Assembly: GCA_002897955.1 (NCBI GenBank)
Contig: BDTY01000050.1
Coordinates: 2,641-66,640 of the forward strand
DNA from: an archaeon BMS3Bbin15
GTDB taxonomy: Archaea; Hydrothermarchaeota; Hydrothermarchaeia; Hydrothermarchaeales; BMS3B
Direction of reading: 5' to 3'
Length of the DNA: 64,000 bases
The position numbers were made by a program, and so were the translations under genes. The notes beneath the pieces are model-generated. The model was not told the origin of the DNA, did not search any database, and worked only from the letters and a program-made list of their open reading frames with translations. This document shows, one piece after another, positions 15,857 to 62,818 of this stretch; position 1 is the stretch's first letter; every line of letters begins with the position of its first letter.

Positions 15857-16639
15857 ATGAATGTCGAGATTTTTCCTATTTCAAATTTCCCACTTGTAAG
15901 AAGAGGAGATAATATAATAAAGCTCATAGTCGATTCTCTTGAAAAATCAAAGCTGGTTCTGCAGAATGGAGATATCGTGGTAGTTACTGAGAAGATAGTT
16001 GCAAAAGCTGAGGGCAGGGTTTACACACTGAGCAATATAAAACCGGGTTCAAAAGCTTTAAAAATAGCAGAAATTACACATAAGGAGCCAGGGCTTGTGG
16101 AGCTTATTCTCAGAGAGACCGAGAGTATTCTCTATCTTGGAGAAGGTTTTCTCCTTGTGAACACAAATCAGGGTTTTGTGTGCGCCAATGCAGGAGTTGA
16201 CATGAGCAACGTGGGAGAAAACAGAGCCAAACTACTGCCAGAGAATCCTGACATAAGTGCAGAGCAGATAAGAAAAGCTCTTGAAGATATGTTTAAGATT
16301 AGAATAGGGGTGGTTATAGCTGACTCTTTTGGAAGAAGTTTCAGAGCTGGCTCCGTTGGCGTTGCAATAGGCTGCTCAGGCGTTGCAGCCCTCCAGGATA
16401 GAAGAGGGAAAAAGGACCTTTTCAGGAAAGAGCTGAAAATTACAAGAGTGGCTATGGCTGACAATATTGCCTCAATGGCAAATGCTGTAATGGGGGAAGG
16501 GAACGAAGGAATAGCTGCAGTTGTTATCAGGGGGCTCGATGTTCTGGGTGAGGGCTCTGCAGGAGACCTGAGAAGAGATATAGAGAAAGATGTTGCCTTC
16601 AAATGCCTGAAAGAAAGATATAATTACAAAAATAGATAG
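15857..16639 (+). CDS. cofE: F420-0:gamma-glutamyl ligase CofE
   Basis: 260 aa. Motifs GDIVVVTEKIVAKAEGR and CANAGVDMSNV, plus the overall architecture, match the CofE family. Confidence 0.6.
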   Translation: MNVEIFPISNFPLVRRGDNIIKLIVDSLEKSKLVLQNGDIVVVTEKIVAKAEGRVYTLSNIKPGSKALKIAEITHKEPGLVELILRETESILYLGEGFLLVNTNQGFVCANAGVDMSNVGENRAKLLPENPDISAEQIRKALEDMFKIRIGVVIADSFGRSFRAGSVGVAIGCSGVAALQDRRGKKDLFRKELKITRVAMADNIASMANAVMGEGNEGIAAVVIRGLDVLGEGSAGDLRRDIEKDVAFKCLKERYNYKNR

Positions 16640-17352: not shown

Positions 17353-18075
17353 ATGAGAACTAAGGGTATCATTCTTCTTCTCATTATTATTCTAATTTCA
17401 GCAGGTTGCCTGCAGACAAACAGTGAGGGCTCATCAGGTTATTCAAAATCAAACACCACAATTTCTGTTTCAGGTGAAGGCATAGTTACGGGAGTGCCTG
17501 ACAGAGCTGTGCTCAACCTTGGCGTTGAAACCAGGGGGAATACCTCAATGGAAGCCTCGGAATCAAATTCTAGACTGAGCAGAAATCTTGTGGCGGTATT
17601 TAAGGGCATTGGAATTAATAGAACAGAAATCAAAACCTCCACTTTAACTATATCTCCAGTTTACACTTATATCAAAAAGGAGCAGAAAATTGTAGGTTAC
17701 AAAGCCATAACCAGCTTTAAGATAACCCTTAAGAATCTGAGTCTCGCAGGAATGGTTATAGATAAAGGGCTTGAAGCCGGTGCGAACAGGATGCAGGGAG
17801 TATCCTTCAAATTCAGCAAAAATAAATCAAAAGAACTTAAGGCTGTTGCTCTTAAAGAGGCTGTGGAAGATGCAACATCAAAGGCAGAAGTTATAGCTGG
17901 TGCCCTCAATGTTACACTTGGTAAGCCCATAAAAGTAACAGAAAGTTACTCATATAATCCTGTTCCCATCTACACCCCAATGACTGAAGCAATGAAAGGA
18001 GTAACTCCAGTGGAGCCCGGAGAAATGAAACTTAAAGCAGGAGTAAATATAGAGTATTCCTTCACTCAGTCTTGA
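17353..18075 (+). CDS. SIMPL/DUF541 domain lipoprotein
   Basis: A signal peptide with a lipobox-like SAGC is followed by ISVSGEGIVTGVPDRAVLNLGVETRG, which is typical of the SIMPL family. Confidence 0.6.
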   Translation: MRTKGIILLLIIILISAGCLQTNSEGSSGYSKSNTTISVSGEGIVTGVPDRAVLNLGVETRGNTSMEASESNSRLSRNLVAVFKGIGINRTEIKTSTLTISPVYTYIKKEQKIVGYKAITSFKITLKNLSLAGMVIDKGLEAGANRMQGVSFKFSKNKSKELKAVALKEAVEDATSKAEVIAGALNVTLGKPIKVTESYSYNPVPIYTPMTEAMKGVTPVEPGEMKLKAGVNIEYSFTQS

Positions 18076-21000
18076 GGAAATCCTTCAAACTCTTCTGCTC
18101 ATTACTTTCATCGTCAAAGAGGGAAGCTATACTCATTCTGAGAATCTCCACCCTCTGTTTCAGATAGCTCTCCAGAGAATATCGCTGAATAAGGTCTTCT
18201 GTGATATTTAAATACTTCTCCACACCTCCTCTCGACACAGTGAGAACAAGCTTGCCTCCACAGCGCCTGCACTTGCCTGTCAGAGGTATTCTCCTGTATT
18301 TTGCATTGCAGTTAACACACCTCACCCTCTGTGTCGAGAATGCTCTCAGATTGCCTGCAAGGTCAGGTAAAAAGTGTGTCTCAATCACCCTTCTTGCCAC
18401 ATCCTGTTCATCCACTGCCCTAATCTTTTTTGCAAGAGCAAGCTGTTTCTCAAGTTTCTCAGTCATCTCTCCAAGGGTTTTGTATGCAGATGTAAGGGGA
18501 GCAAGATTTATATCACTGGTATCATGGGTAAAGCCAAGATTATGGTAAGCTTCGTCAGTTCCCAGGCGGGAGGACACTGTCTCTATAATATCCTCAAATT
18601 CCTGTGGCCTTGCATACCTGAGTGTTGCCTCATAAAATTCAAGAGGGTACCCTGAAACAATGTCTATGTTATGAGCTTCATGGTCCACCTCACTTGGATC
18701 AAGATGGGTTGTAAGAACAAGAGGAGCATCCATTGTACTCCCTCTTGTTGAGGGCAGAAACTTCCTTGAAAAGTTAAGAAGAGCATCCATGAGAAGAAAA
18801 ACTCCATCCTCATCGCCATCACAGTTGTAGGCAAAGATATTATTTACAGGTACAATATGAGAGGGCTCCACATTCAGAGAAATCACATAAGAGGAATCTG
18901 ACGGAGCTGTCCTCTTCTCAACTATTTCATCAAACCAGACCTCACCATTTCCTTTATCCACTCCCTTAGGAGAAATAAGTAATTCTCCAACCTTCATATC
19001 CATTGCATATTTCTCCTCAATCTTATTCTTGAAGAAAACAGGAAATTTGTGGTCAGGGGTTACTCTGATTTCTCTACCACTGTGGGTTTTAAGATATATC
19101 AGATAATCTGGTGAGGTATGAATAGAAACCTCTTTTACTTCACCTTTAATAATTCTTTTTTCAGATAAATTATAAGAAGAAACAAAGATTCTATCTTCAG
19201 GCATAAGTATTCTGGTTCCAAAACTATCCTCTGATTTCCCACTGCAATAGCTCACCAGATGTCTGAGACTGATATACCCTTTTCCATACACATAAATTTT
19301 TTCATCAGGATGAAAACAGTTCCTTCTCTTTGCTGCATGAAAATAGGGATGGGCATAGCCTGCATTGGCTTTTGAGAAACCAGCAATCCTTCCGAGAATG
19401 GCTGCTGAAGTATGAGGTGCAAGCCCCAGCACAAGATGCCCGACAAGGTCTTCTTTATTTTCAGCCCTGTAGTATGGCTCAAGTCCATAGAACTTAACCA
19501 GCAGTTCGTCAATAAACTTTGTAACTTTAAGAAGATAATCTGCACCGGAAAGAGGAAGTATAATATCCTGAGGCTTGAGCTCAAGAATCTGCTCCTCATC
19601 CACAAGAGGTTCACCCTTATTATCCCTGTCATAACCAAGCATTTTCAGTATCTCAAGACTTACCATTACCTCTCTGGGTCTGAAGTGTGTCAAAGGTATA
19701 TCTGTAGAGTCAAATCTTATTGTACCATCCTTGAAAACATATACTCCATGCCTGGCTCTGAGAAGCCCTTTCTCAATAGGCTCTGGAATCTTATAGAGAG
19801 ATGTCATTCCTATTATACCTTTGACAACCTCTCTACCAGAGCTGCCCACTCTTGCTTTTGCTCTTTCGTATAGAGTTTTAATGTCAATTTCACGTTCAGA
19901 ATACAGGTTCAATCTGGAGCTGCATTTCGGGCATGTGCTCTCCCTTATATCCCCTGTATATCCACAACTCTGGCATTTTCTTTTAAAAACTGTGGGCTCA
20001 CCACAGCGCTGGCAGAGAGTTGTTATACCTACCTTTGAACAGCTCTCACAGTATCTATACACAACTTCAATCTTAATTTTACCCTTCCTGACTGCCTTCT
20101 CTACCTCCCTTGTTTTTCCTCCATTTCTGCCTATGGGAAAGAGAACATTTACAGCAGGAGACATCTTTCTTTCTTTTGCCTTTTCAGGTCTGCCCATCCT
20201 GAGACCTATGTAGCTCGGTGCCTTCTCCCTTACCTTAATTCCAAAGGAATTCACAAGTTCCATGGTGCTCTCTACCTTTGAACATGCCTCCTCAAAGTTT
20301 CCATTTACCAGACCAAAACAATAAAGAAGGGCTTTAAATTCCTGAAGAACAATATAGCGAGCTTCAACCCTGTGGGGCACACCAAGAAACTCAAGAAGAC
20401 GCTTTTCCCGACTCAGAGGAACATAGAGTTCTTCATCCCTGACCTCACCCTTTTTTAGCATGTTGTGGAGCAATTTCATGTCTTCAAGGGTTAAGTCATG
20501 ATAGAAGTATGTATAGCGCGGATGAAGAGGGATTCCAAGCTCTTCTGAAATTCTGATGGCAATTTCTTCATCAGGAATATTTTCAATGTCCAGATATTCT
20601 GTGTACTTACTCTTTTTCTCTCTCTCAAGCTCCTGAACCCACCACTCCTCACAGTAACCCGCAGGAATTAAAATATGATTGTTTTCAAGGAAATCCCCAT
20701 AATTCACCAGAATATCCCCCATGAAGAGTATCTCGTCCACATCTTCTCTTACTTCTAAAGCCTGAGAATAGCTCTCAACCCTTAAAACACTTCCATCCTT
20801 AAGCCTGACTATTGGCCCATCAATTGTATCACAGGGAGTAACAGCTGTGCCCTTACCAGGCCTCTCAGTCTTCAGCTGAGTGCCTATAGCTATAAAGTCA
20901 TCAGTCAGAACCATAGTCGCAGGATGCATGCTCATGGCAGCGAAACCAGAGTTTCTGCTCCTGCCATAGCGAAGTCTGAAGCCTCCCTTTTCCGAGGGAT

Positions 21001-21916
21001 GGGAGAGTACAGGTCTGCCTGCCACAAGTTCTTTAATATACTTGAAGCTGGGCTCTATTTTAACATCCTTCTCTTCACTGTCATCTGTAACTCTTGAGGC
21101 AGCAAACTCGCCAAGCCATTCCCAGCTTTCAAAGCCCAGCTTATTCACGTACTTCAGAATCTTGCCTACCTTCTGGAGCACACCCTCAGCAAGAACAAGC
21201 ACAGCCCCTCCTCTCAGAGAATTGGTTTCAATCCTCTCAAGATTTCTGTAACCACTCACCTCAACCTTTTCGGTTGGCTCCCCTGTTATCTCCACAGGTA
21301 TGTTTTTTACAGCTTTTCTTATATCCTGCGGTTCTGGATGATACTGCAACCTTGCAGCCTCGGTATTGTAAAGGTCAACCTCCTCAACAAACCTCTCTAT
21401 CTCATCATCAGTCGGTTTATAAGATTTAAGACCAAGACCCACTCTTATGGCATCGCCTACAAGCACAGCAAGAGCCTGAGCAGAGCCACCTGCCGACCTT
21501 ATGGGCCCTGCAAAGTATATGGCAAGGTAGTCTGTACCATCATTATTTTTTTTAATCCTCACCTTTACTATACCCTCAAGCGGTGCAGCCACAATTCCTT
21601 CCGTTATCAGGGCAAGAGAAGTTCTGAGAGCCTGCTCGGCAGTTTTTTCCATGCCTTCAAATCTTCCGAATTTTCCCTTAACAATCTCTCCAGCTATCTT
21701 TATTGCTGCCTCCTCATTACTCATCTCCTCCACGAGCTCTCTTATTCTGGGTGCAACCCCTTTCGGCCCAACCAGACCTTCAACACGCTCTGCCATATCC
21801 TTTGCAAAGGGTATCTCAGGCTCAAGCTCCGGGTCAAAACCTCTACTTCTGGCTTTCAGAGCTATACTATGTGCTCTCTTCACCCCTTCTTCCAGTGAAC
21901 GAAAATAATCTTCCAT
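18062..21916 (-). CDS. polC: DNA polymerase II (PolD) large subunit DP2, intein-containing
   Basis: 1284 aa. It has the DP2 N-terminus and Zn-finger clusters. The catalytic motif HPYFHAAKRRN/CDGDED is interrupted by a 165-aa insertion. Confidence 0.9.
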   Translation of the reverse strand: MEDYFRSLEEGVKRAHSIALKARSRGFDPELEPEIPFAKDMAERVEGLVGPKGVAPRIRELVEEMSNEEAAIKIAGEIVKGKFGRFEGMEKTAEQALRTSLALITEGIVAAPLEGIVKVRIKKNNDGTDYLAIYFAGPIRSAGGSAQALAVLVGDAIRVGLGLKSYKPTDDEIERFVEEVDLYNTEAARLQYHPEPQDIRKAVKNIPVEITGEPTEKVEVSGYRNLERIETNSLRGGAVLVLAEGVLQKVGKILKYVNKLGFESWEWLGEFAASRVTDDSEEKDVKIEPSFKYIKELVAGRPVLSHPSEKGGFRLRYGRSRNSGFAAMSMHPATMVLTDDFIAIGTQLKTERPGKGTAVTPCDTIDGPIVRLKDGSVLRVESYSQALEVREDVDEILFMGDILVNYGDFLENNHILIPAGYCEEWWVQELEREKKSKYTEYLDIENIPDEEIAIRISEELGIPLHPRYTYFYHDLTLEDMKLLHNMLKKGEVRDEELYVPLSREKRLLEFLGVPHRVEARYIVLQEFKALLYCFGLVNGNFEEACSKVESTMELVNSFGIKVREKAPSYIGLRMGRPEKAKERKMSPAVNVLFPIGRNGGKTREVEKAVRKGKIKIEVVYRYCESCSKVGITTLCQRCGEPTVFKRKCQSCGYTGDIRESTCPKCSSRLNLYSEREIDIKTLYERAKARVGSSGREVVKGIIGMTSLYKIPEPIEKGLLRARHGVYVFKDGTIRFDSTDIPLTHFRPREVMVSLEILKMLGYDRDNKGEPLVDEEQILELKPQDIILPLSGADYLLKVTKFIDELLVKFYGLEPYYRAENKEDLVGHLVLGLAPHTSAAILGRIAGFSKANAGYAHPYFHAAKRRNCFHPDEKIYVYGKGYISLRHLVSYCSGKSEDSFGTRILMPEDRIFVSSYNLSEKRIIKGEVKEVSIHTSPDYLIYLKTHSGREIRVTPDHKFPVFFKNKIEEKYAMDMKVGELLISPKGVDKGNGEVWFDEIVEKRTAPSDSSYVISLNVEPSHIVPVNNIFAYNCDGDEDGVFLLMDALLNFSRKFLPSTRGSTMDAPLVLTTHLDPSEVDHEAHNIDIVSGYPLEFYEATLRYARPQEFEDIIETVSSRLGTDEAYHNLGFTHDTSDINLAPLTSAYKTLGEMTEKLEKQLALAKKIRAVDEQDVARRVIETHFLPDLAGNLRAFSTQRVRCVNCNAKYRRIPLTGKCRRCGGKLVLTVSRGGVEKYLNITEDLIQRYSLESYLKQRVEILRMSIASLFDDESNEQKSLKDFLKTE
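18824..19318 (-). other. mini-intein (about 165 aa, no homing endonuclease domain) in DP2
   Basis: The insertion starts with Cys (CFHPDEKIY...) directly after AAKRRN. It ends ...NIFAYN and is followed by the +1 Cys of CDGDED. The resulting extein junction reconstitutes the canonical DP2 catalytic motif. Coordinates are from codon counting and are accurate to about 1 nt. Confidence 0.75.
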
Positions 21917-21917
21917 A

Positions 21918-23396
21918 TCAGATGAACTCCATTTTCACAATTTTGAGAGTCTGAAGGTCAACAACAGGTATTTTTCCAGGTGTGGGTTGAAGATTTACCT
22001 TTTTCTGGAAGGAAGTCTGTGACTGAAATGTGCCAGAGTTTATTACCAGAGTATTTCTGTAGGTGAGATGGTCAAAGGTATGAACATGACCCATGTGAAG
22101 AATTTCAGGCAACTCTTCAAGTATGAGGTAATCAGTATTTTCTGGGGCCAGAGGTACTTTTCCTCCATAAATTGGAGATAGATGCCTCTTCTTCAGAAGG
22201 CTGAGCATGGCTTTGGCCGGCTTTGTATAGCTCATGCCAGGTATGGCTGAAATTATATCATCAAGACTCCTCCCATGGTAGCTCACCACTCTAACGCCGT
22301 GAAGCTCTGCAGTTAAGGGGTTACCTGTCATGTGAATTCTTGGGTCTTCATAGTACTCCTGGACAAAATCTTCACTTATAGCAGGCTGAGGTTCAGCCTG
22401 CCTTGTGGCATCGTGGTTGCCTGGCGTTATAATAATTTCAATATAATCAGGAATCATACTGAGATATTCATAGAATTTAGCATACTGCTTATGAATATCC
22501 CTGATAACAAGTTCTTCCTTCTGTTCAGGGTAAATCCCAACTCCATCAACAATATCTCCTCCAATAACGATATACTTAACCTTCGAGGCAAGCTCTCTCT
22601 GGGAACTATTACCCTCTTCCATGCGAAGCCATTTTATAAATCTGAGAAAAACGTCGTCGAGGAATTTGGCACTTCCTACATGCACATCTGAAATAAGAAC
22701 TGCAACAACAGGGTCGGGGCTCTTTCTCACCTCCCTGTTAATAGGAACATCGGGGAAGAAAATCTCATTAACAATGAAGAGACCTCTGCCATATTTTCCT
22801 TTCAACCCTATTATTTCATCTGTTACTATCTCAGTGGAAATCTTTTTTAAATCTTCATCTCTATTCAGTATCAATGCATTGGATATTCCACTGGGGTCTT
22901 CAAGCTCAATTAAAATATGCCCCCTTTTTGTTTCCTTTTTATTATTCACTATACCGATAATGGAACTCTCAGAAGGAGAGTGATTTTTCACAATCTCAAT
23001 TAGATTTGAGCCTGTAAGAGCCTGCCTGTTTTTCAGAACTTTACCAAGAACCTCGTATCTATGATTAAAAAATTTAACAAAATTGTTTATATTGCCTGAA
23101 GTGAAACTTTTTGAAGTTATGTCCTTACTGCGACTTATTTTTATATCAGCATCATATTCTTCAGCTGTTACCTTTTTTCTCCCTTTAATTATAACCTCAG
23201 TTTTTTTTTCATTTCCATTTTTTATTTCATCAAGAAGTTCCTGGGTTACGACGGAAGTGCCCTTCCGCTTTGTGATATCCAGAATCCTGCTCATATCCAA
23301 CTCTGAAGAGCAAAGCTGTCTCAGTTCTCCGAGTACAGAGGGATGGATATTGATATTACAATCAAGAAACCTGCATAGAATTTCAGTTTTATTCAT
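21918..23396 (-). CDS. polB: DNA polymerase II (PolD) small subunit DP1 (3'-5' exonuclease, calcineurin-like phosphoesterase)
   Basis: 492 aa. It carries metallophosphoesterase motifs (GDIVDGVG, GNHD). It sits directly upstream of DP2 with a 1-nt gap. Confidence 0.85.
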   Translation of the reverse strand: MNKTEILCRFLDCNINIHPSVLGELRQLCSSELDMSRILDITKRKGTSVVTQELLDEIKNGNEKKTEVIIKGRKKVTAEEYDADIKISRSKDITSKSFTSGNINNFVKFFNHRYEVLGKVLKNRQALTGSNLIEIVKNHSPSESSIIGIVNNKKETKRGHILIELEDPSGISNALILNRDEDLKKISTEIVTDEIIGLKGKYGRGLFIVNEIFFPDVPINREVRKSPDPVVAVLISDVHVGSAKFLDDVFLRFIKWLRMEEGNSSQRELASKVKYIVIGGDIVDGVGIYPEQKEELVIRDIHKQYAKFYEYLSMIPDYIEIIITPGNHDATRQAEPQPAISEDFVQEYYEDPRIHMTGNPLTAELHGVRVVSYHGRSLDDIISAIPGMSYTKPAKAMLSLLKKRHLSPIYGGKVPLAPENTDYLILEELPEILHMGHVHTFDHLTYRNTLVINSGTFQSQTSFQKKVNLQPTPGKIPVVDLQTLKIVKMEFI

Positions 23397-23422
23397 ACTG
23401 TTATCCTGAGAAATATTAACAT

Positions 23423-24658
23423 TTATAGCAATAGTTTCTGAGTGATTATATAATTCCTCAGACTGCTGAGCCTGACATCTTCAAGAATACAATCTTTTAT
23501 TCTTGAGATTGGCACTTCAAGCTTTATCTCCTTTGTTCTTCCATATCTTCCCTTGCTTATTACCTTCGAGTTGAGAATACCAAGAAGATCAAGCTCTGAA
23601 ATTAAATCCGATACTCTTCTCTGAGTAAGCGGGTCTATGGAAACATACCTGCACAGACTCGTGTAGATATCGTAAATTTTACCTGTGCTTATAAACTTCT
23701 CCTTCCTCTCCTCGAGGTAAATCACGGCATAGAGTAAAAGCTTTGACTGGGTCGGAAGTGTCTGGATAGCTTCAACTATATTGTCCGATTCAATCTTGCT
23801 GTTAGCTTTTCTGACATGCCTTTCTGTAGCTATACTTGCATTCTCCCTTTCAGCCACCTCTCCACTCACCCTCAAAAGGTCAAGGGCCTTTCTTGCGTCA
23901 CCATGGTCACGAGCTGCAAGAGCGGAGCATAGAGGTATGACATACTCATCGAAAGAACCTTCCAAAAAGGCGAGCTCAGCCCTTCTCTTGAGAATATCCT
24001 CAAGCTGCTTTGCATTATAAGGCTTGAAAATTATTTCATCTCTTCCGAGGGTGCTTAAAACTCTATTATCCAGATAATCAGTAAATTTAAGGTCATTTGA
24101 TATACCTATAACACTCAATTTCGAATTTTTTAGTTCAGAGTTTATTCTTGTCAGGTAATATAAAACTGAATCTCCATGTTTACCTACTATTCTATCTATT
24201 TCATCCAGAACAACTATTATAATATTATTCTCACTATCCGCTCCCTCCTTAAAAGAGTCATAAACTTTATCTGTAGGCCAGCCTGTAAAGGGAACATTCT
24301 TTCCAAACTCATTTGCAAGAGTGCAGAGAATTCTATACTGGGTGTTTACAAGTTCACAGTTTATATATACAGTTTTTATATTGAAATCAACTTTCGAGCT
24401 TGCTCTCTCAAGCTCACTGCACACAAACTTTGTCACTATTGTTTTCCCTGTTCCACTCTTGCCATATATAAGCACATTAGAAGGGGTCTCCTCTTTAAGC
24501 GAAGGAGCTATAAGAGAAGCCAAATATTTTATCTCTTCCTCCCTGTGAGGCAATTCATCTGGAGTATAAGAATGTCTTAATACCTCCCTATCTTTAAATA
24601 TAGGCTGCTTCTTTAAAAAAGGTTCAAATATTCCTGTAAAAGAGCTTTTGCTATCCAT
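23423..24658 (-). CDS. cdc6: Orc1/Cdc6 replication initiator
   Basis: AAA+ Walker A GKSGTGKT, Walker B VVLDEID, C-terminal winged helix. It is adjacent to the polD genes. Confidence 0.85.
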   Translation of the reverse strand: MDSKSSFTGIFEPFLKKQPIFKDREVLRHSYTPDELPHREEEIKYLASLIAPSLKEETPSNVLIYGKSGTGKTIVTKFVCSELERASSKVDFNIKTVYINCELVNTQYRILCTLANEFGKNVPFTGWPTDKVYDSFKEGADSENNIIIVVLDEIDRIVGKHGDSVLYYLTRINSELKNSKLSVIGISNDLKFTDYLDNRVLSTLGRDEIIFKPYNAKQLEDILKRRAELAFLEGSFDEYVIPLCSALAARDHGDARKALDLLRVSGEVAERENASIATERHVRKANSKIESDNIVEAIQTLPTQSKLLLYAVIYLEERKEKFISTGKIYDIYTSLCRYVSIDPLTQRRVSDLISELDLLGILNSKVISKGRYGRTKEIKLEVPISRIKDCILEDVRLSSLRNYIITQKLLL

Positions 24659-24959
24659 AACTGATATCTCCTCGACCTAATTAGCATTGATAAGAGCAGG
24701 TATTCTTTTGTAGTCAGTATATATATTACTTATGTCTATCCAAGCTTTCTTTCTTGTAGAGTCTGCTTACCACACTATCACAGAGACCCCATTATTTCTA
24801 CTGGAAACATTATTGTGAAGTATGTTATTGCAATATCTGTTCAAAAGATTTATATATGATAATATCGTAAATTTCAGATGGATATTTTATTACTCCTTAT
24901 TTTTATATCATTCTATTTTATTACTCCTTTTGTTCTATAGGAAATATAGGGGGTGGGTG
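24659..24959. other. putative replication origin (oriC) region upstream of cdc6
   Basis: A 300-bp AT-rich intergenic region with ORB-like elements (TCTACTGGAAAC at about 24794; GGAAATATAGGGGGTGGG at about 24948). It has AT-rich unwinding stretches and a 16-bp direct repeat ATTTTATTACTCCTT at about 24884 and 24914. Confidence 0.5.
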
Positions 24960-57533: not shown

Positions 57534-57794
57534 TTTATTCTCCGTGTATGTGGCATGCAGGTTCAGCAGTTTCTTTGATTTTATCTCTTTTGTGTGTTAT
57601 TGTTTTTCAAAATCAATCGAGTAATTCCTTCTCTATAAGGTGAGCATGGTGATGACGAAAAATTTATGTGTTGTAAAACCCAATTAGTATAGGAGGTAAA
57701 TATATGAGGTGGGAGATTTGGAATTTGGATGTTTTTTTATTTTATGGATTGTATAATAGTCGTAAAATACAGTTTAAATCAGGAGGTGGAAGAT

Positions 57795-59720
57795 ATGAAA
57801 GAATTTGATACAAGGGGCAGGAGTATAGAGGATTCAACCATAGACCCTGCCAATGTGGAACTTTTGAAAATAGCAAAAAAGGATGGAATAGATACAGCTT
57901 TTGACAGGGTTCAGAAGCAGGAGCCAAAGTGCAAATTCTGCGAGGAAGGAGTCTCTTGCAGGAACTGTAATATGGGCCCATGTAGAATTACCCAAAATTC
58001 ACCCAGAGGGGTATGCGGTGCCACGGCTGATACTATGGTTGCCAGAGGACTTCTCCAGAATACAATAGGAGGGGCGGCATCCCATATGGACCATGCAAGA
58101 CATGTGGCTATACTTTTACGGGAGGCTGGCATGGGTAATGCTCCATATAAGATTAAGGATGAGGCAAAGCTTAGAAGGATTGCCGGGGATCTAGGAATTG
58201 AAGGGGCTGACACAAAGGATAAAAAGCTGCTTGCCATGGAGGTGGCAAACAGGGCTCTGCAGGACCTGGGAAGGCAGCACGGCGAAGATGCCATGGACTG
58301 GATTAAACTGCATGCCCCTGAGGAGCGTATTGATACATGGAAAAAACTTGGCATTCTACCATTCGGTGGAAATGTTGTGGTAAATGAAGGTATGCACAGG
58401 AGAACTATGGGTGTGGATGCAGACCCTGTAAACATAATACTTGGTATGCTGAAAACAGGTATTGTCGATGGGTATGGCGGCCTTGCTATGTCAACGGATT
58501 TGCAGGATATTCTTTTTGGAAGCCCAAGTCCAAAAATTTCAGAGGCTGGGCTCGGTGTACTCAGGGAAGACTATATCAATATTTCCACACATGGCCATGT
58601 GCCCCTGCTCTCAGAGAAGATTGTGGATGCAGCCGAAGAGCTGGAGGAAGAGGCAATAAAGGCTGGAGCAAAGGGTATAAATGTGGTGGGACTTTGCTGT
58701 ACTGGAATAGAGCTACTGGAAAGAAAGGGGATTCCCATAGCAGGAAATGAATTGAATACTGAGACTGCCATTATAACCGGGGCTATGGAAGCTGTGGTGG
58801 TAGATTATCAGTGTATATATCCGGGGCTTGTGCCTGTGGCAGATAATTTCCATACTAAAGTTATCACCACTGCCGATATCGCAAAGATTCCTGGCGCAGA
58901 ACACATAGAGTTCAATGAAAAAGAAGCTGATGAGGTTGCTAAAAAGATTGTGAGACTGGCAATAGATAACTTCAAGAATAGGGACCCGAAGAGGGTTAAC
59001 ATACCAAATGTAAAGTCCAAAGTTATGGCAGGTTTTACCCCTGAGGTTTTGCTGGCGGTACTCTCTAAAATTAACAAAGAGGACCCGTTAAAACCTCTGG
59101 TGGACGCTATCACTGAAGGTAAAATCCGTGGTGCAGTGGCTATTGTGGGCTGTAATAATCCAAGGGTAAAACATGATTTCATGAATGTTGGGATTGCCAG
59201 AGAGCTCATAAAGCGCAATGTACTTGTGATATCTACTGGATGCGTTGCCACAGCCCATGCAAAGTCAGGGCTTATGAATCCTGACACAGCCTATAAGGAG
59301 GCAGGAGAGGACCTTCAGGGTGTATTGAAAGTTCTGGGCAGGGCTGCTGGTATGGAGGCTCTGCCACCTGTACTAAACTTTGGCTCATGTGTGGACAACT
59401 CCAGGATAGGAGACCTTTTGAAGGCACTCTCTGACAGGATTGGTGTGCCAATAAAGGACCTCCCTGTGCTTGCCAGCGCACCGGAATATACAACTGAGAA
59501 AGCACTTTCTATAGGCACATGGGCAGTAAGCCTTGGGGTTACCACCCATGTAAATCCGCCGCCGAGAATTTCAGGCAGCCAGCTTGTGACAAAAATACTG
59601 ACAGAGGATGCGGAAGGCCTGGTCGGGGCCACTGTTTTTACCGGCTCTGACCCTGTGGAAACAGCCAGAGTAATGATAGAAAAGATAGAAGAAAAAAGAA
59701 GAAAACTGGGCTTGAATTAA
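57795..59720 (+). CDS. cooS: Ni-dependent carbon monoxide dehydrogenase catalytic subunit CooS
   Basis: N-terminal Cys cluster CKFCEEGVSCRNCNMGPCRI (B/D-cluster ligands). Length about 640 aa. The start is set at MKEFD, preceded by GGAGGTGG. Confidence 0.8.
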   Translation: MKEFDTRGRSIEDSTIDPANVELLKIAKKDGIDTAFDRVQKQEPKCKFCEEGVSCRNCNMGPCRITQNSPRGVCGATADTMVARGLLQNTIGGAASHMDHARHVAILLREAGMGNAPYKIKDEAKLRRIAGDLGIEGADTKDKKLLAMEVANRALQDLGRQHGEDAMDWIKLHAPEERIDTWKKLGILPFGGNVVVNEGMHRRTMGVDADPVNIILGMLKTGIVDGYGGLAMSTDLQDILFGSPSPKISEAGLGVLREDYINISTHGHVPLLSEKIVDAAEELEEEAIKAGAKGINVVGLCCTGIELLERKGIPIAGNELNTETAIITGAMEAVVVDYQCIYPGLVPVADNFHTKVITTADIAKIPGAEHIEFNEKEADEVAKKIVRLAIDNFKNRDPKRVNIPNVKSKVMAGFTPEVLLAVLSKINKEDPLKPLVDAITEGKIRGAVAIVGCNNPRVKHDFMNVGIARELIKRNVLVISTGCVATAHAKSGLMNPDTAYKEAGEDLQGVLKVLGRAAGMEALPPVLNFGSCVDNSRIGDLLKALSDRIGVPIKDLPVLASAPEYTTEKALSIGTWAVSLGVTTHVNPPPRISGSQLVTKILTEDAEGLVGATVFTGSDPVETARVMIEKIEEKRRKLGLN

Positions 59721-60022: not shown

Positions 60023-62818
60023 ATGAATGAAAAAGAAACTAGAGAGCAGTTAATAGACAAACAGTTAAAAACTGCTGGATGGCTTAAGAAGTATATTAAA
60101 GAAGAAGTAAATTCTGTTAAATCTAATTTTAAAACTAAGGAATATGTGCTGTCTCAAGGTAGAGAGGATAATTCTGGAAGATTTATAGATTACTTACTGC
60201 TGGCTGAAGATAATAGTCCAATTGCTTTAATTGAAGCAAAAAAATTCTCTGTTTCAGAAGATAAAGGAAGGGCTCAATCAAGAACTTATCTTAAAAATAT
60301 TGAATCTCAAACAAAGGAGAAAATTCCGATTTTTTTAACTAATGGTAATAAATGGCTTCTTATAACTCAGGACGGAGTTGAGAGTTATGTTAGCGGACCT
60401 TTTTCTCAATCTGACTTAAAGAGAAGAATGGAACTTTTTAGGAAGAGAAGAGACCCGACTAAAATAAACATTGGGAAGATTGTAGATAGACCAAAGAGCA
60501 TTCTTATTGTAAAACAAATGATGGAACATATTCAGATTGGGTATAAATCTGCTTTAATCAATATGGCTACTGGAACAGGAAAAACAAGAGTTGCTATGGC
60601 TGTGATTGATGTTCTTTTAAGGTCAAATATTGTAAGAAATGTTTTATTCATTGCTGATAGAATTGCATTGGCTAATCAGGCAAAATCTGCTGGCTTCAAG
60701 GAGTTTTTTTCTGAGGCAGTTGTTGATTTAAGAGAAAGTCCGAAGAGTTTTCCAAATGGACTATATGTTTCAACAGTTCAAACGTTAAGGAGTGGGAAAA
60801 CTAAGAAATTTTTTGAAAGTTTTAGTCCTGGCTTTTTTGATTTGATTATTTTTGATGAAGCCCACAGGTCAATTTATGATCCAAATAGATTAATTTATAA
60901 ATATTTTGATGCAATAAAAATAGGTCTTACAGCAACACCCTCAACAGCCGAAAGTAGAAACACTTATGAGTTATTTGAATGTGAGGGAGATAAGCCAACA
61001 GTTGAATATTCTTATGATGAAGCTATAAGAGATGGAGTTTTAGTTCCATATAACGCAGAGATGATTGATACAAAGATTCTTTCGTTAGGAATAGACGGGG
61101 CAAGTTTAACAAGACAGCTTCAAGACCAATTAAGAAAACAGGAAGAAGACCCAAATTATACTATGCTTCCAGGTTCTTCATTCGCTAAGGTTTTCATGGA
61201 TGATAAAACCAATGAGTTAGTAATTAGGGAGTTTATGAATAGGTGCTACAAATCTGATGAAGGAAAACCTGCAAAAACGATTTTCTTTTGTGCAAATATC
61301 AAACATGCAGAGCATATCAAGAAAATTTTTAATAAGTTATTTCCTGCTGTAAGTAATGAAGTTCAAATGATTGTTTCTGATATATATAGGTATACTGACG
61401 AGATTTCAAGATTCAAACTTGATTCCGAGCCAAGAATTGCTTTGTCTGTTGGTGTTTTAGATACTGGAATTGATATTCCAGAAGTATGCAATTTAGTTTT
61501 TGCAAAACCTGTTTTTTCAGGAATAAGGTTCTGGCAAATGCTCGGAAGAGGAACTAGAAACTTAAGATCATGTAAACATAAGGAATGGCTTCCAAACAGA
61601 GAGAAAAACGATTTTTTGATTTTAGACTTTACTATTGGCGGACATTCAAATATAAAATATCATCATCTTAAAGAAGCTAAAGAGAGAAAACCTGGAACAG
61701 ACACTCTTACAAAAATTTTCTTGAATAGGGTTGAATTATTAAAGAAAGGATTAAATGCTAAACAGAAAGAATTTGTTGAAACTAAAATTGTTTATGAAGT
61801 TGATTCTTTAGATAAGGATTCTTTTATTGTAAGAGAAAAACTTCCGTTAATTAATAATATTTTAGATACTGTAAAAAATCCCTCAACCCCTATGATTGTT
61901 GCAGAGAGAACTGCTGAATATGGTGAAAAGGTTAAGAAAAGAGTGCAAAGAAAGTTTGATTTAAAAGATTACGTCAATGAATTAAGAAACGAAATTGCTC
62001 CTCTTATTTCATTAAATCCTGGAAAGAATCCTCTTGTTTCTTCATTTATTCTTCAAGTTGAAAAATTGTTTAAGTTTATCTTAGATGATGATAAAGATGG
62101 AATATATAAAATTCAAGAACATGTAAAGGAAAATATGGAGAATATTTTGCAGAAAGATAATTTAGAAGCCGTGCAAGAAAAGAAGGAAGATATTTTGAAA
62201 GTTTTTCAAGAGAATTTCTGGGATGAATTGACTTTTGAAGATGTTGAATTTATTATAATTGAGCTTGCTCCATTGATGGTTTATTATGAAAAAAATCCTA
62301 AGAGGATGCTTCAAGTTGATGCTCCTGATATAATTTTGAAAGTTGAGGAATTCAAAAAAGAAGTCAAGGAAGATGAAGAATTAAAAAAATTCTTAGAGAC
62401 AAACTCTCTTGTTAATAAGATTAGGAAAGGAGAAGGTATTACTCCTTCTGAGCTTCTTGAGTTAGAAAAGCAATTAAGCGCATTGAGACCTGAGATGACT
62501 ATTGACAATGTTCAGAGAATTCTAAAGATTGACTTCTTGCTCTTCATAAGAGAGATATTGAGTTTAAAGCAGGAATATGACCCTCGCGTTTTGATAGAAA
62601 GAGAATTTAATAAACATATTATTGAGAAAAATCAGAATTATACTTCTGAGCAGATTAAGTTTTTGCAGATTTTGAAAAAGGTTTTTGCTCGAACTAAACA
62701 CATTGAATTAAAGGATTTTACTGTTCCGCCTCTTTCTAATGAAAGACCTCTTGACAAGTTTCAGGATTCTGAGTTGCAGAAGATAGTTATTGAGTGTAAT
62801 AAGATTAAGATGATGTGA
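60023..62818 (+). CDS. type I restriction enzyme HsdR-like nuclease-helicase (no adjacent hsdM/hsdS in the window)
   Basis: 931 aa. The N-terminus (TREQLIDKQLKTAGW, then D...IEAKK) is a PD-(D/E)xK nuclease. SF2 helicase motifs I MATGTGKT, II FDEAH, III LTATP, VI QMLGRGTR. The C-terminal 370 aa are K/E-rich and unassigned. Confidence 0.7.
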   Translation: MNEKETREQLIDKQLKTAGWLKKYIKEEVNSVKSNFKTKEYVLSQGREDNSGRFIDYLLLAEDNSPIALIEAKKFSVSEDKGRAQSRTYLKNIESQTKEKIPIFLTNGNKWLLITQDGVESYVSGPFSQSDLKRRMELFRKRRDPTKINIGKIVDRPKSILIVKQMMEHIQIGYKSALINMATGTGKTRVAMAVIDVLLRSNIVRNVLFIADRIALANQAKSAGFKEFFSEAVVDLRESPKSFPNGLYVSTVQTLRSGKTKKFFESFSPGFFDLIIFDEAHRSIYDPNRLIYKYFDAIKIGLTATPSTAESRNTYELFECEGDKPTVEYSYDEAIRDGVLVPYNAEMIDTKILSLGIDGASLTRQLQDQLRKQEEDPNYTMLPGSSFAKVFMDDKTNELVIREFMNRCYKSDEGKPAKTIFFCANIKHAEHIKKIFNKLFPAVSNEVQMIVSDIYRYTDEISRFKLDSEPRIALSVGVLDTGIDIPEVCNLVFAKPVFSGIRFWQMLGRGTRNLRSCKHKEWLPNREKNDFLILDFTIGGHSNIKYHHLKEAKERKPGTDTLTKIFLNRVELLKKGLNAKQKEFVETKIVYEVDSLDKDSFIVREKLPLINNILDTVKNPSTPMIVAERTAEYGEKVKKRVQRKFDLKDYVNELRNEIAPLISLNPGKNPLVSSFILQVEKLFKFILDDDKDGIYKIQEHVKENMENILQKDNLEAVQEKKEDILKVFQENFWDELTFEDVEFIIIELAPLMVYYEKNPKRMLQVDAPDIILKVEEFKKEVKEDEELKKFLETNSLVNKIRKGEGITPSELLELEKQLSALRPEMTIDNVQRILKIDFLLFIREILSLKQEYDPRVLIEREFNKHIIEKNQNYTSEQIKFLQILKKVFARTKHIELKDFTVPPLSNERPLDKFQDSELQKIVIECNKIKMM

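Follow-up and report, generated by a model that had tools for sequence, protein, structure and literature searches.

A putative class-1 mini-intein with a Tyr-Asn terminus at the known PolII site of DNA polymerase D in a Hydrothermarchaeota-like archaeon

The PolII mini-inteins of Pyrococcus abyssi (Pab) and P. horikoshii (Pho) (2LCJ, 5BKH, 7OEC) interrupt the large subunit (DP2) of the archaeal DNA polymerase D (PolD) at AAKRRN/CDGDED, and splicing has been shown experimentally for both. The catalytic residues of P. abyssi DP2 are D956 and D958, and the loop that bears them holds the intein insertion site (PMC4996933). According to PMC7708050, PolD is essential and is the replicative polymerase in most archaea. 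Roles in splicing have been assigned to the Thr and His of block B (PMC8175363, PMC4031507) and, in the Pab PolII intein, to Ser166 and the block-F His (PMC8175363).

Class-1 inteins without a penultimate His (position G:6 of block G) have also been described. Among them are the cyanobacterial DnaE inteins, with Ala or Ser at that position, and the archaeal and viral inteins of Chen, Benner and Perler (2000); they are reported, in the papers that cite that work for the compensation, to complete the canonical four steps without the G:6 His. Other residues, and in particular the block-F His, then aid the cyclisation of Asn (PMC5050341, PMC7664689, PMC4031507); the block-F His is able to take over the role of the penultimate residue, and inteins of this kind do splice (PMC5050341, PMC7664689). 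Changes at the penultimate position alter the splicing rate in other inteins (PMC5050341). The mini-inteins of Pyrococcus CDC21 (MCM; 6RPQ, 6RPP) lie at another site in another host protein, and have the canonical His-Asn end.

Here we use the term window to refer to the whole stretch of DNA that was analysed (64,000 nt), and window intein to refer to the 165-aa insert in its DP2 gene. The gene lies on the minus strand at 18062..21916 and encodes a precursor of 1284 aa including the intein, as judged from the open reading frame and its translation, Pfam and the NCBIfam DP2 equivalogs. Its reading frame is unbroken across all 1284 codons and matches PolC_DP2_N, PolC_DP2_central and PolC_DP2_cat (E 1e-116 to 1e-143, Pfam), with the PolC_DP2_cat match broken into two by the insert. 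In translation, the N-extein (aa 1-866; 19319..21916, minus strand) ends with HPYFHAAKRRN, the 11 codons before the insert (19319-19351). The insert itself (precursor aa 867-1031; 18824..19318, minus strand) runs from CFHPDEKIYV to NNIFAYN, and is followed by a C-extein of 253 aa plus stop (18062..18823, minus strand), which starts with CDGDED, the catalytic loop bearing the catalytic aspartates (6 codons, 18806-18823). An earlier note on this DNA had put the insert at exactly these coordinates, leaving the minus strand unstated. It had also placed the insertion in the catalytic motif at an Asn/Cys junction, with Cys at both position 1 and position +1, and the flanking codons and the translation read exactly so. 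Splicing would leave a DP2 of 1119 aa, which is exactly the length of the DP2 of an intein-free relative (P0002).

The small subunit DP1 (21918..23396; PF04042 DNA_pol_E_B, PF00149 Metallophos) is directly upstream of DP2, and an Orc1/Cdc6 initiator gene (23423..24658; Cdc6_C, Cdc6_lid, AAA) is upstream of DP1, both on the minus strand in the same orientation as DP2, which belongs to an orc1/cdc6-DP1-DP2 operon. A replication origin upstream of orc1/cdc6 was considered and rejected, as the region holds one ORB-like 13-mer and a 21-nt direct repeat, without statistical enrichment. The copies of DP2 were assessed within the 64-kb window, and a second, intein-free copy may lie elsewhere in the genome.

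The insert matches the families PF14890 (Intein_splicing; E 1.4e-10) and TIGR01445 (intein_Nterm; E 4.5e-14), and is covered by the intein-containing DP2 model of NCBIfam (NF011302) at model positions 932-1098. Against the sequences of solved PDB inteins (phmmer), the best match is the CDC21 intein 6rpq (E 1.3e-13), and 5bkh aligns end to end, from N/CF through HQ/C, with the same junction. The AF2 model, based on an alignment of DP2-site mini-inteins that excluded the 488-aa P0003 intein described below, is nearly all beta-strand with one short helix (pLDDT 92.4; pTM 0.86), and pLDDT falls only at residues 121-130 of the insert (mean 73). By Foldseek, the model superposes on several intein crystal structures with TM scores of 0.83-0.89 (0.89 for the PhoCDC21-1 intein, 6rpq; 0.89 for 7oec; 0.85 for the Pab PolII intein, 2lcj), and each of the 50 listed matches (E ≤ 2.2e-5) is to a Hint domain of an intein, a Hedgehog protein or a BIL. 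The CDC21 inteins are the best solved matches in both sequence and structure, and MCM inteins are among the closest non-DP2 relatives in a search of 1.8 billion proteins. An exhaustive search of representative proteins with the intein gave 97 matches; a word-indexed protein search with the intein alone, using an index that is insensitive to short domains, gave 15 candidates and no significant match. No further intein was found in the six-frame translation of the window with an HMM of DP2-site mini-inteins, a specific model that very different inteins could escape.

Class 1 is indicated by the Hint fold, the N-terminal Cys, the block-B TxxH, the C-terminal Asn with Cys+1, and the existence of empty-site alleles. 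The one class-1 feature absent is the penultimate His, which is highly conserved, yet documented as dispensable and not strictly defining. Class-3 (WCT) inteins have no nucleophile at position 1 and instead carry a Trp(B:12)/Cys(F:4)/Thr(G:5) triplet (PMC5050341). That class, or another non-class-1 mechanism, is ruled out here by Cys1, Phe at B:12, Ser at F:4 and Ala163 at G:5. We are confident that the insert works as a class-1 mini-intein in this Hydrothermarchaeota-like archaeon and that it belongs to the known PolII/DP2 (polC) insertion-site allele. Its splicing is inferred, with indirect support from purifying selection and from its place in an essential catalytic loop.

The site is empty in close relatives, where the earlier note had suggested looking for an empty site. 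The DP2 of P0002/L003, which is 82% identical, reads RRNCDGDED without interruption, and among the best 120 DP2 homologues the site is empty in 71 and filled in 37 (12 were not parsed). The Asn/Cys junction of HAAKRRN/CDGDED is common to the window intein, the Pho PolII intein 5bkh and 40 other DP2 inteins. The earlier note had named two observations that would speak against an intein, namely the same segment occurring as a conserved non-intein domain in orthologues and the lack of a predicted Hint fold; most orthologues are uninterrupted, and the structure prediction gives a Hint fold at high confidence. It is extremely improbable that the insert is instead a lineage-specific accessory domain kept in the mature DP2. 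Its in-frame presence, and nothing more, fits such a domain, but the insert is missing from the 82%-identical relative and most homologues, it has the Hint fold and its splice-junction residues are intact, and it interrupts the catalytic loop one residue ahead of the catalytic Asp. In addition, its composition is unlike that of the host gene (GC 35.8%, versus 44.5% for the exteins), and is below that of every 495-nt window of the exteins.

The residues expected of a working intein are in place. Cys1 of block A (19316..19318), the predicted step-1 nucleophile, is invariant in an alignment of DP2-site mini-inteins (A1), and position 1 is Cys in 41/41 sampled DP2-site inteins. The block-B motif T87-P-D-H90 (19049..19060) supplies the B:7 Thr and the B:10 His, and the block-F core S147-LNVEPS-H154 (18857..18880) supplies Ser at F:4 and the conserved block-F His. 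C1, T87, H90 and H154 are invariant across the 12-13 DP2-site mini-inteins of alignments A1 and A2. At the C-terminal splice junction (18821..18829), aligned and translated, Tyr164 replaces the penultimate His and is followed by Asn165 and Cys+1 (18821-18826); all of these features are on the minus strand. The Tyr-Asn ending was correctly read in the earlier note.

The Pyrococcus PolII inteins and the window intein are both 160-185 aa long, with a short linker replacing the endonuclease, and have in common Cys1/Cys+1, TxxH, Ser at F:4, the block-F His and the Hint fold (TM 0.85-0.89). Their identity is only about 22-27%, and the Pyrococcus inteins end in His-Gln rather than Tyr-Asn. Splicing has been shown for Pab and Pho, whereas the window intein is known from sequence and model.

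A decayed remnant that no longer splices, which would make the interrupted DP2 a pseudogene or an inactive or altered polymerase, might be suspected from the absence of the penultimate His, the Ser rather than the commoner Asp at F:4, and the deletion of the endonuclease. We regard this as very unlikely. Ser at F:4 is also found in the splicing-competent Pab PolII intein, characterised inteins without the penultimate His splice (PMC5050341, PMC7664689), and the window intein retains, as invariant residues, every nucleophile as well as the block-B TxxH and the block-F His. The 1284-codon reading frame is intact, the gene sits within the orc1/cdc6-DP1-DP2 operon, and the identical 1284-aa protein is found on 6 metagenome contigs, two of which are shown, each from a different sequencing run. 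The closest intein-bearing allele (L001/P0001; DP2 94% identical) differs from that of the window more in the intein than in the exteins (protein identity 85% and 95%, respectively). From this one pair of sequences, whose inteins differ by 27 non-synonymous and 26 synonymous changes, dN/dS is 0.23 for the intein and 0.11 for the exteins; judging from these codons, the intein is under purifying selection. Lastly, the terminus (A/V)YN is conserved among lineage members that are roughly 55-59% identical, which also argues against decay.

The Tyr-Asn ending was called non-canonical in the earlier note. This holds with respect to inteins in general, since a penultimate His is present in 107/110 related inteins of other host proteins, but not at the DP2 site, where it is present in only 7/41 sampled inteins and absent in 34/41. 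DP2-site endings without His include GQ, GN, KQ, YN, AN, SN, AQ, NN, YQ and FQ, among others, and Tyr or Phe at G:6 also occurs in Methanocaldococcus DP2 inteins (YQ, FQ). By comparison of sequences, then, Tyr-Asn is one ordinary variant of the DP2-site allele. We found no mention of Tyr at G:6 in the cited literature on class-1 inteins without the G:6 His. The further claim that such an ending implies altered chemistry is an overstatement, since published inteins without the penultimate His follow the same four-step pathway and the block-F His154 is present and invariant in the DP2-site alignment. Those inteins and the window intein differ in host protein and sequence.

The variability of block G at this site can be read in other ways. 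It is conceivable, though improbable, that the intein splices conditionally and acts as a gated post-translational switch on the activation of PolD. Gating could be by redox state (through a Cys1-Cys+1 disulfide or Cys25), by temperature, or by metal or DNA that binds to the acidic CDGDED loop, and the unusual block G would adjust the speed of step 3. At the same site, the Pab PolII intein is blocked by a Cys1-Cys+1 disulfide and needs reductant and high temperature to splice in vitro (PMC8175363, PMC5874633). The window intein has the same Cys pair, plus a Cys25 that is conserved in its own lineage only. Rate shifts upon penultimate-residue changes in other inteins (PMC5050341), and the exceptional variability of block G at the DP2 site, also fit a switch. 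However, relaxed constraint predicts a variable block G equally well, the sequence offers nothing to tell a regulated from a constitutive intein, and a regulatory need is not evident because most close relatives do without the intein. A more speculative proposal, to which we give little credence, is that the DP2-loop inteins have as a family been freed from the block-G constraint (His in ∼17%, versus ∼97% in MCM and other hosts, with switching between terminal Asn and Gln). Catalysis of Asn/Gln cyclisation would be assisted by the acidic C-extein loop CDGDED, perhaps with Mg2+ bound, and the strictly conserved Tyr164 would be its intein-side partner in this lineage. If this were true, the folding or the metal loading of the polymerase active site would be linked to splicing, and hence to the activation of PolD.

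The window intein belongs to a separate sub-lineage, characterised by CFHP...DxFGT...(A/V)YN, whose full-length member retains LAGLIDADG. This member, from Candidatus Pyrohabitans sp. (P0003), is a same-site intein of 488 aa with a LAGLIDADG endonuclease of ∼320 aa (PF14528), and is 59% identical to the window intein over the splicing domain. P0003 and its shortened relatives share the site, the block-F SLNVEPSH and the (A/V)YN end with the window intein, but P0003 keeps the endonuclease that the window copy has lost. The shortened inteins are of 203 aa (L002), 175 aa (P0121) and 165 aa (the window and L001/P0001), with three different deletion end points, those of the window being common to L001/P0001 only. 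The (A/V)YN terminus is found in every lineage member identified (the window, L001/P0001, L002, P0121 and P0003). The three shorter versions with their different end points indicate that the window copy is an endonuclease-deleted derivative, and the linker KGVDKGNGEV (intein aa 118-127; 18938..18967, minus strand), which in the alignment stands in place of the P0003 endonuclease, is by the same comparison a deletion scar. A full-length, endonuclease-bearing intein is ruled out by this 10-residue linker, where P0003 has ∼320 aa with two LAGLIDADG motifs. In agreement with the earlier note, the insert has no match to homing-endonuclease families, even at E ≤ 1.

A transfer of the intein from MCM to DP2 was suggested by the best PDB match, which is a CDC21 intein, but seems less likely, since the N-terminal CFHPDTKI...DDFGT region is common to other inteins at the DP2 site (P0072, P0144, P0063, P0136). 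On the sequences, common descent within the DP2 allele is the simplest reading of its origin. A LAGLIDADG-bearing ancestor would have undergone internal deletion of its homing endonuclease to leave the degenerate descendant seen here.

In the proposed route, a single chain of 1284 aa is translated, in which the intein parts AAKRRN from the catalytic loop CDGDED, so that the precursor is presumably not an active polymerase. The intein would fold as a Hint domain and excise itself in the standard four steps. Cys1, aided by Thr87 and His90, would attack the Asn(-1)-Cys1 bond to give a thioester, and the N-extein would pass to Cys+1 by trans-thioesterification. Asn165 would then cyclise to a succinimide and release the intein; the aid normally given by the penultimate His would come from the invariant His154 and/or neighbouring groups, and Tyr164 may serve as a conserved, lineage-specific packing or hydrogen-bonding residue. 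Finally, an S-to-N acyl shift would yield RRN-CDGDED and the 1119-aa DP2. Because the insertion is in the loop with the catalytic residues D956/D958 and PolD is essential, splicing would be required, and the intein would now persist only because an essential polymerase needs it to splice precisely.

Both the insertion site and the intein type were already known, and current understanding is unchanged. The window intein, a small Cys1/Cys+1 mini-intein of thermophile origin that ends in Tyr-Asn, offers an additional natural variant for intein engineering and for studies of step 3 without the penultimate His. For annotation, the mature catalytic subunit of PolD should be taken as 1119 aa rather than 1284 aa, with an active site that would form only after protein splicing. 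For the family, the series of 488 (with LAGLIDADG), 203, 175 and 165 aa, together with the empty sites in close relatives, presents a cycle of intein invasion, decay and loss within one phylum.

The DP2 reading frame (18062-21916, minus strand; 1284 codons) contains an insert of exactly 165 codons, running from Cys to Asn at 18824-19318 (minus strand), between the codons for HPYFHAAKRRN (19319-19351, minus strand) and those for CDGDED (18806-18823, minus strand). The precursor translation reads ...GYAHPYFHAAKRRN up to the insert, CFHPDEKIYVYGKGY...VPVNNIFAYN within it, and CDGDEDGVFLLMDALLNFS... after it. Domain matches identify the predicted host protein as DP2, the large subunit of PolD: Pfam PolC_DP2_N, PolC_DP2_central and PolC_DP2_cat match with E values of 1e-116 to 1e-143, the NCBIfam DP2 equivalogs match as well, and in the Pfam search the insert splits the PolC_DP2_cat match in two. 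DP2 is the last gene of a same-strand, head-to-tail array (18062-24658, minus strand) that begins with orc1/cdc6 (23423-24658, minus strand), with DP1 (21918-23396, minus strand) between the two. The nearest genomes are Hydrothermarchaeota-type MAGs, namely "Methanobacteriota archaeon SZUA-158" (locus L001; 94% identity) and "Candidatus Hydrothermarchaeota archaeon" (locus L003; 82% identity). The identical DP2 protein occurs on six metagenome contigs; for the two contigs listed, the sequencing runs differ.

Two further features of the surroundings may be mentioned. Upstream of orc1/cdc6 lies an AT-rich spacer of about 300 nt (24659-24959), which may be a replication origin; a 21-nt sequence (TATTTTATTACTCCTT...) is directly repeated in it, at 24883 and 24914, and it has a single ORB-like 13-mer (TTCTACTGGAAAC, 24796-24808), which shows no enrichment relative to shuffles. 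The window also encodes a prismane/CO-dehydrogenase family protein (57729-59720, plus strand) and an F420-0:gamma-glutamyl ligase (15857-16639, plus strand), both compatible with a Hydrothermarchaeota-like carboxydotroph, as well as a type I restriction R subunit (ResIII + EcoEI_R_C; 60023-62818, plus strand).

Sequence and predicted structure agree that the insert is an intein. Searched alone, it matches two intein models, TIGR01445 intein_Nterm with E 4.5e-14 and PF14890 Intein_splicing, whose gathering score it exceeds, with E 1.4e-10; no other Pfam family matches at E ≤ 1, and therefore it has no LAGLIDADG or HNH domain. The earlier note had judged it too short for a LAGLIDADG endonuclease. 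Its PDB sequence matches are the Pyrococcus CDC21 inteins 6rpq (1.3e-13) and 6rpp and the PolII inteins 5bkh, 7oec and 2lcj; the 5bkh alignment spans N-CFPGD... to ...THQ-C, an extein junction identical to that of the window intein. An AlphaFold2 model, built on an alignment of 12 DP2-site mini-inteins, has a mean pLDDT of 92.4 and a pTM of 0.86, and is nearly all beta-strand with one short helix, residues 121-130 being the only soft region. The Hint fold, whose absence would have spoken against an intein, is thus predicted: Foldseek against the PDB places the model closest to 6rpq (TM 0.89), 7oec (0.89) and 2lcj (0.85), and all 50 matches listed are Hint domains, the best three being followed by RadA, VMA, TFIIB, DnaB and KlbA inteins and by Hedgehog and BIL domains.

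The alternative of a non-intein accessory domain of DP2 is contradicted by this fold and also by empty sites in relatives, and we consider it scarcely credible. We parsed the best 120 DP2 homologues by two flanking motifs: 71 have an uninterrupted ...RRNCDGDED (or ...RRD-, ADGDED), 37 are interrupted by 160-513 aa at precisely this point, and 12 were not parseable. The second-closest homologue (P0002, from L003; 82% identical) has an empty site and is 1119 aa long, which is 1284 minus 165, so that the 165 aa are not a conserved part of orthologous proteins. Within this set the +1 residue is Cys in every intein-bearing allele and Ala in nine intein-free alleles. The intein DNA is compositionally foreign (GC 35.8% versus 44.5% for the exteins; GC3 30.3% versus 40.6%), and no 495-nt extein window reaches its low GC. 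Two other homologues of 1652 aa, P0077 and P0113, are interrupted at this site by 513 and 509 aa that end ...NVLWSNQLFQVR directly before CDGDED. The last residue is Arg in place of Asn or Gln, and a block-F His is not evident ahead of it; these inserts are either non-splicing or have an unusual C-terminal reaction.

The invariant columns of the DP2-site mini-intein alignment are Cys1, Ile8, Pro70, Thr87 and His90 (the block-B TxxH) and His154 (the block-F His); the remaining residues of the class-1 set, Asn165 and Cys+1, are present too. Position F:4 is Ser147, as in the splicing-competent Pab PolII intein (Ser166; PMC8175363). The class-3 (WCT) signature is absent, the corresponding residues being Phe at B:12, Ser at F:4 and Ala at G:5. 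The only departure from the general intein consensus is Tyr164, at the penultimate position where His is expected. In the pathway that we propose, Thr87 and His90 would aid an N-to-S acyl shift at Cys1 (step 1), the N-extein would be moved to Cys+1 by trans-thioesterification (step 2), Asn165 would cyclise with help from His154 and with some conserved role for Tyr164 (step 3), and an S-to-N shift would give the 1119-aa DP2 (step 4). The catalytic aspartates of P. abyssi DP2, D956 and D958, lie in a DPBB-2 loop that joins beta31 to beta32 and holds the intein site in several species (PMC4996933). The insert interrupts the protein one residue before the first catalytic aspartate, and the unspliced precursor should therefore be catalytically dead. 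The Cys1/Cys+1 pair would allow a redox trap of the type described for the Pab PolII intein (PMC8175363, PMC5874633). A regulated, conditionally splicing version of the same intein, which would be a subset of the main explanation, has nothing specific to support it and is unlikely.

The Tyr-Asn end is unusual for inteins in general, as the earlier note held, but not at this site. Among representative-search matches, 107 of 110 intein C-termini from other host proteins, largely MCM, end in His-Asn. Among 41 DP2-site inteins, all of which begin with Cys, the last two residues are GQ (7), GN (6), HQ (6), YN (4), KQ (4), AN, SN, AQ, NN and VR (2 each), and HN, RQ, YQ and FQ (1 each); Gln is terminal in 22, and the penultimate His is present in only 7, so that its loss (34/41) is the rule. 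Block G is strikingly relaxed across the family at this site, with extein assistance and relaxed constraint as candidate causes. The G:6 His helps Asn to cyclise (PMC4031507, PMC8175363), but several inteins without it still splice via compensatory residues (PMC7664689). According to PMC5050341 (citing Chen, Benner & Perler 2000; Kerrigan et al. 2009), an upstream block-F His is able to take over its role; putting the His back can speed, slow or not change the reaction (PMC5050341). "Altered chemistry" therefore overstates the case, because the pathway is not altered in these accounts (PMC7664689, PMC5050341), and the wording that finds support is "differently assisted step 3". The earlier interpretation is otherwise essentially right, its "non-canonical" aspect being routine for a DP2-site allele.

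When 1.84 billion representative proteins were searched exhaustively with HMMER, one match alone fell below 1e-30: a Pyrohabitans-like DP2 fragment (P0121) whose 175-aa intein occupies the same site. Across all searches, the lineage CFHP(D/E)EKI ... SLNVEPSH ... (A/V)YN has five members: the window intein (165 aa, ending AYN), P0121, those of SZUA-158 (L001/P0001; 165 aa, 85% identical, with exteins 95% identical) and Hydrothermarchaeota S141_67 (locus L002, 3578-4186; 203 aa), and a 488-aa form in Candidatus Pyrohabitans sp. (P0003) with PF14528 LAGLIDADG and two LAGLIDADG-type motifs. All five keep Cys25 (19244-19246, minus strand; ...VSYCSGK...), which other DP2-site inteins lack; this residue could pair with Cys1 or Cys+1 in a redox role, or could just be structural. 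Relative to P0003, the short forms (203, 175 and 165 aa) have three different deletion end points, and therefore the endonuclease has undergone at least three independent losses. The linker KGVDKGNGEV (18938-18967, minus strand), which overlaps the sole low-confidence stretch of the model, is the deletion scar in the window intein. In Pyrohabitans jungbluthii (L004) the DP2 match is 3357 nt, the length expected of an intein-free 1119-aa DP2; the clade thus has invaded and decayed alleles side by side with apparently empty ones.

Compared with L001, the dN/dS of the intein is 0.23 (27 non-synonymous and 26 synonymous differences), and that of the exteins 0.11. On this comparison the intein evolves faster than the exteins yet is clearly under purifying selection, as expected of an element that still needs to splice. 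That it is a dead remnant is very improbable given this ratio, the intact reading frame, the invariant catalytic residues, the conservation of the terminus and the location in an operon.

The window intein is thus a PolII/DP2 mini-intein, of a long-known kind, and represents a new sub-lineage in Hydrothermarchaeota. Our literature search found no mention of inteins in Hydrothermarchaeota, and so this specific instance appears to be undescribed. It brings no new principle, and its chief use lies in two by-products: a clean endonuclease-loss series and the family-wide relaxation of block G at the DP2 site. The intein states in Pyrohabitans/Hydrothermarchaeota (488 aa; 203, 175 and 165 aa; empty in P0002/L003 and, by match length, in L004) together trace the invasion-decay-loss cycle as a compact natural series.
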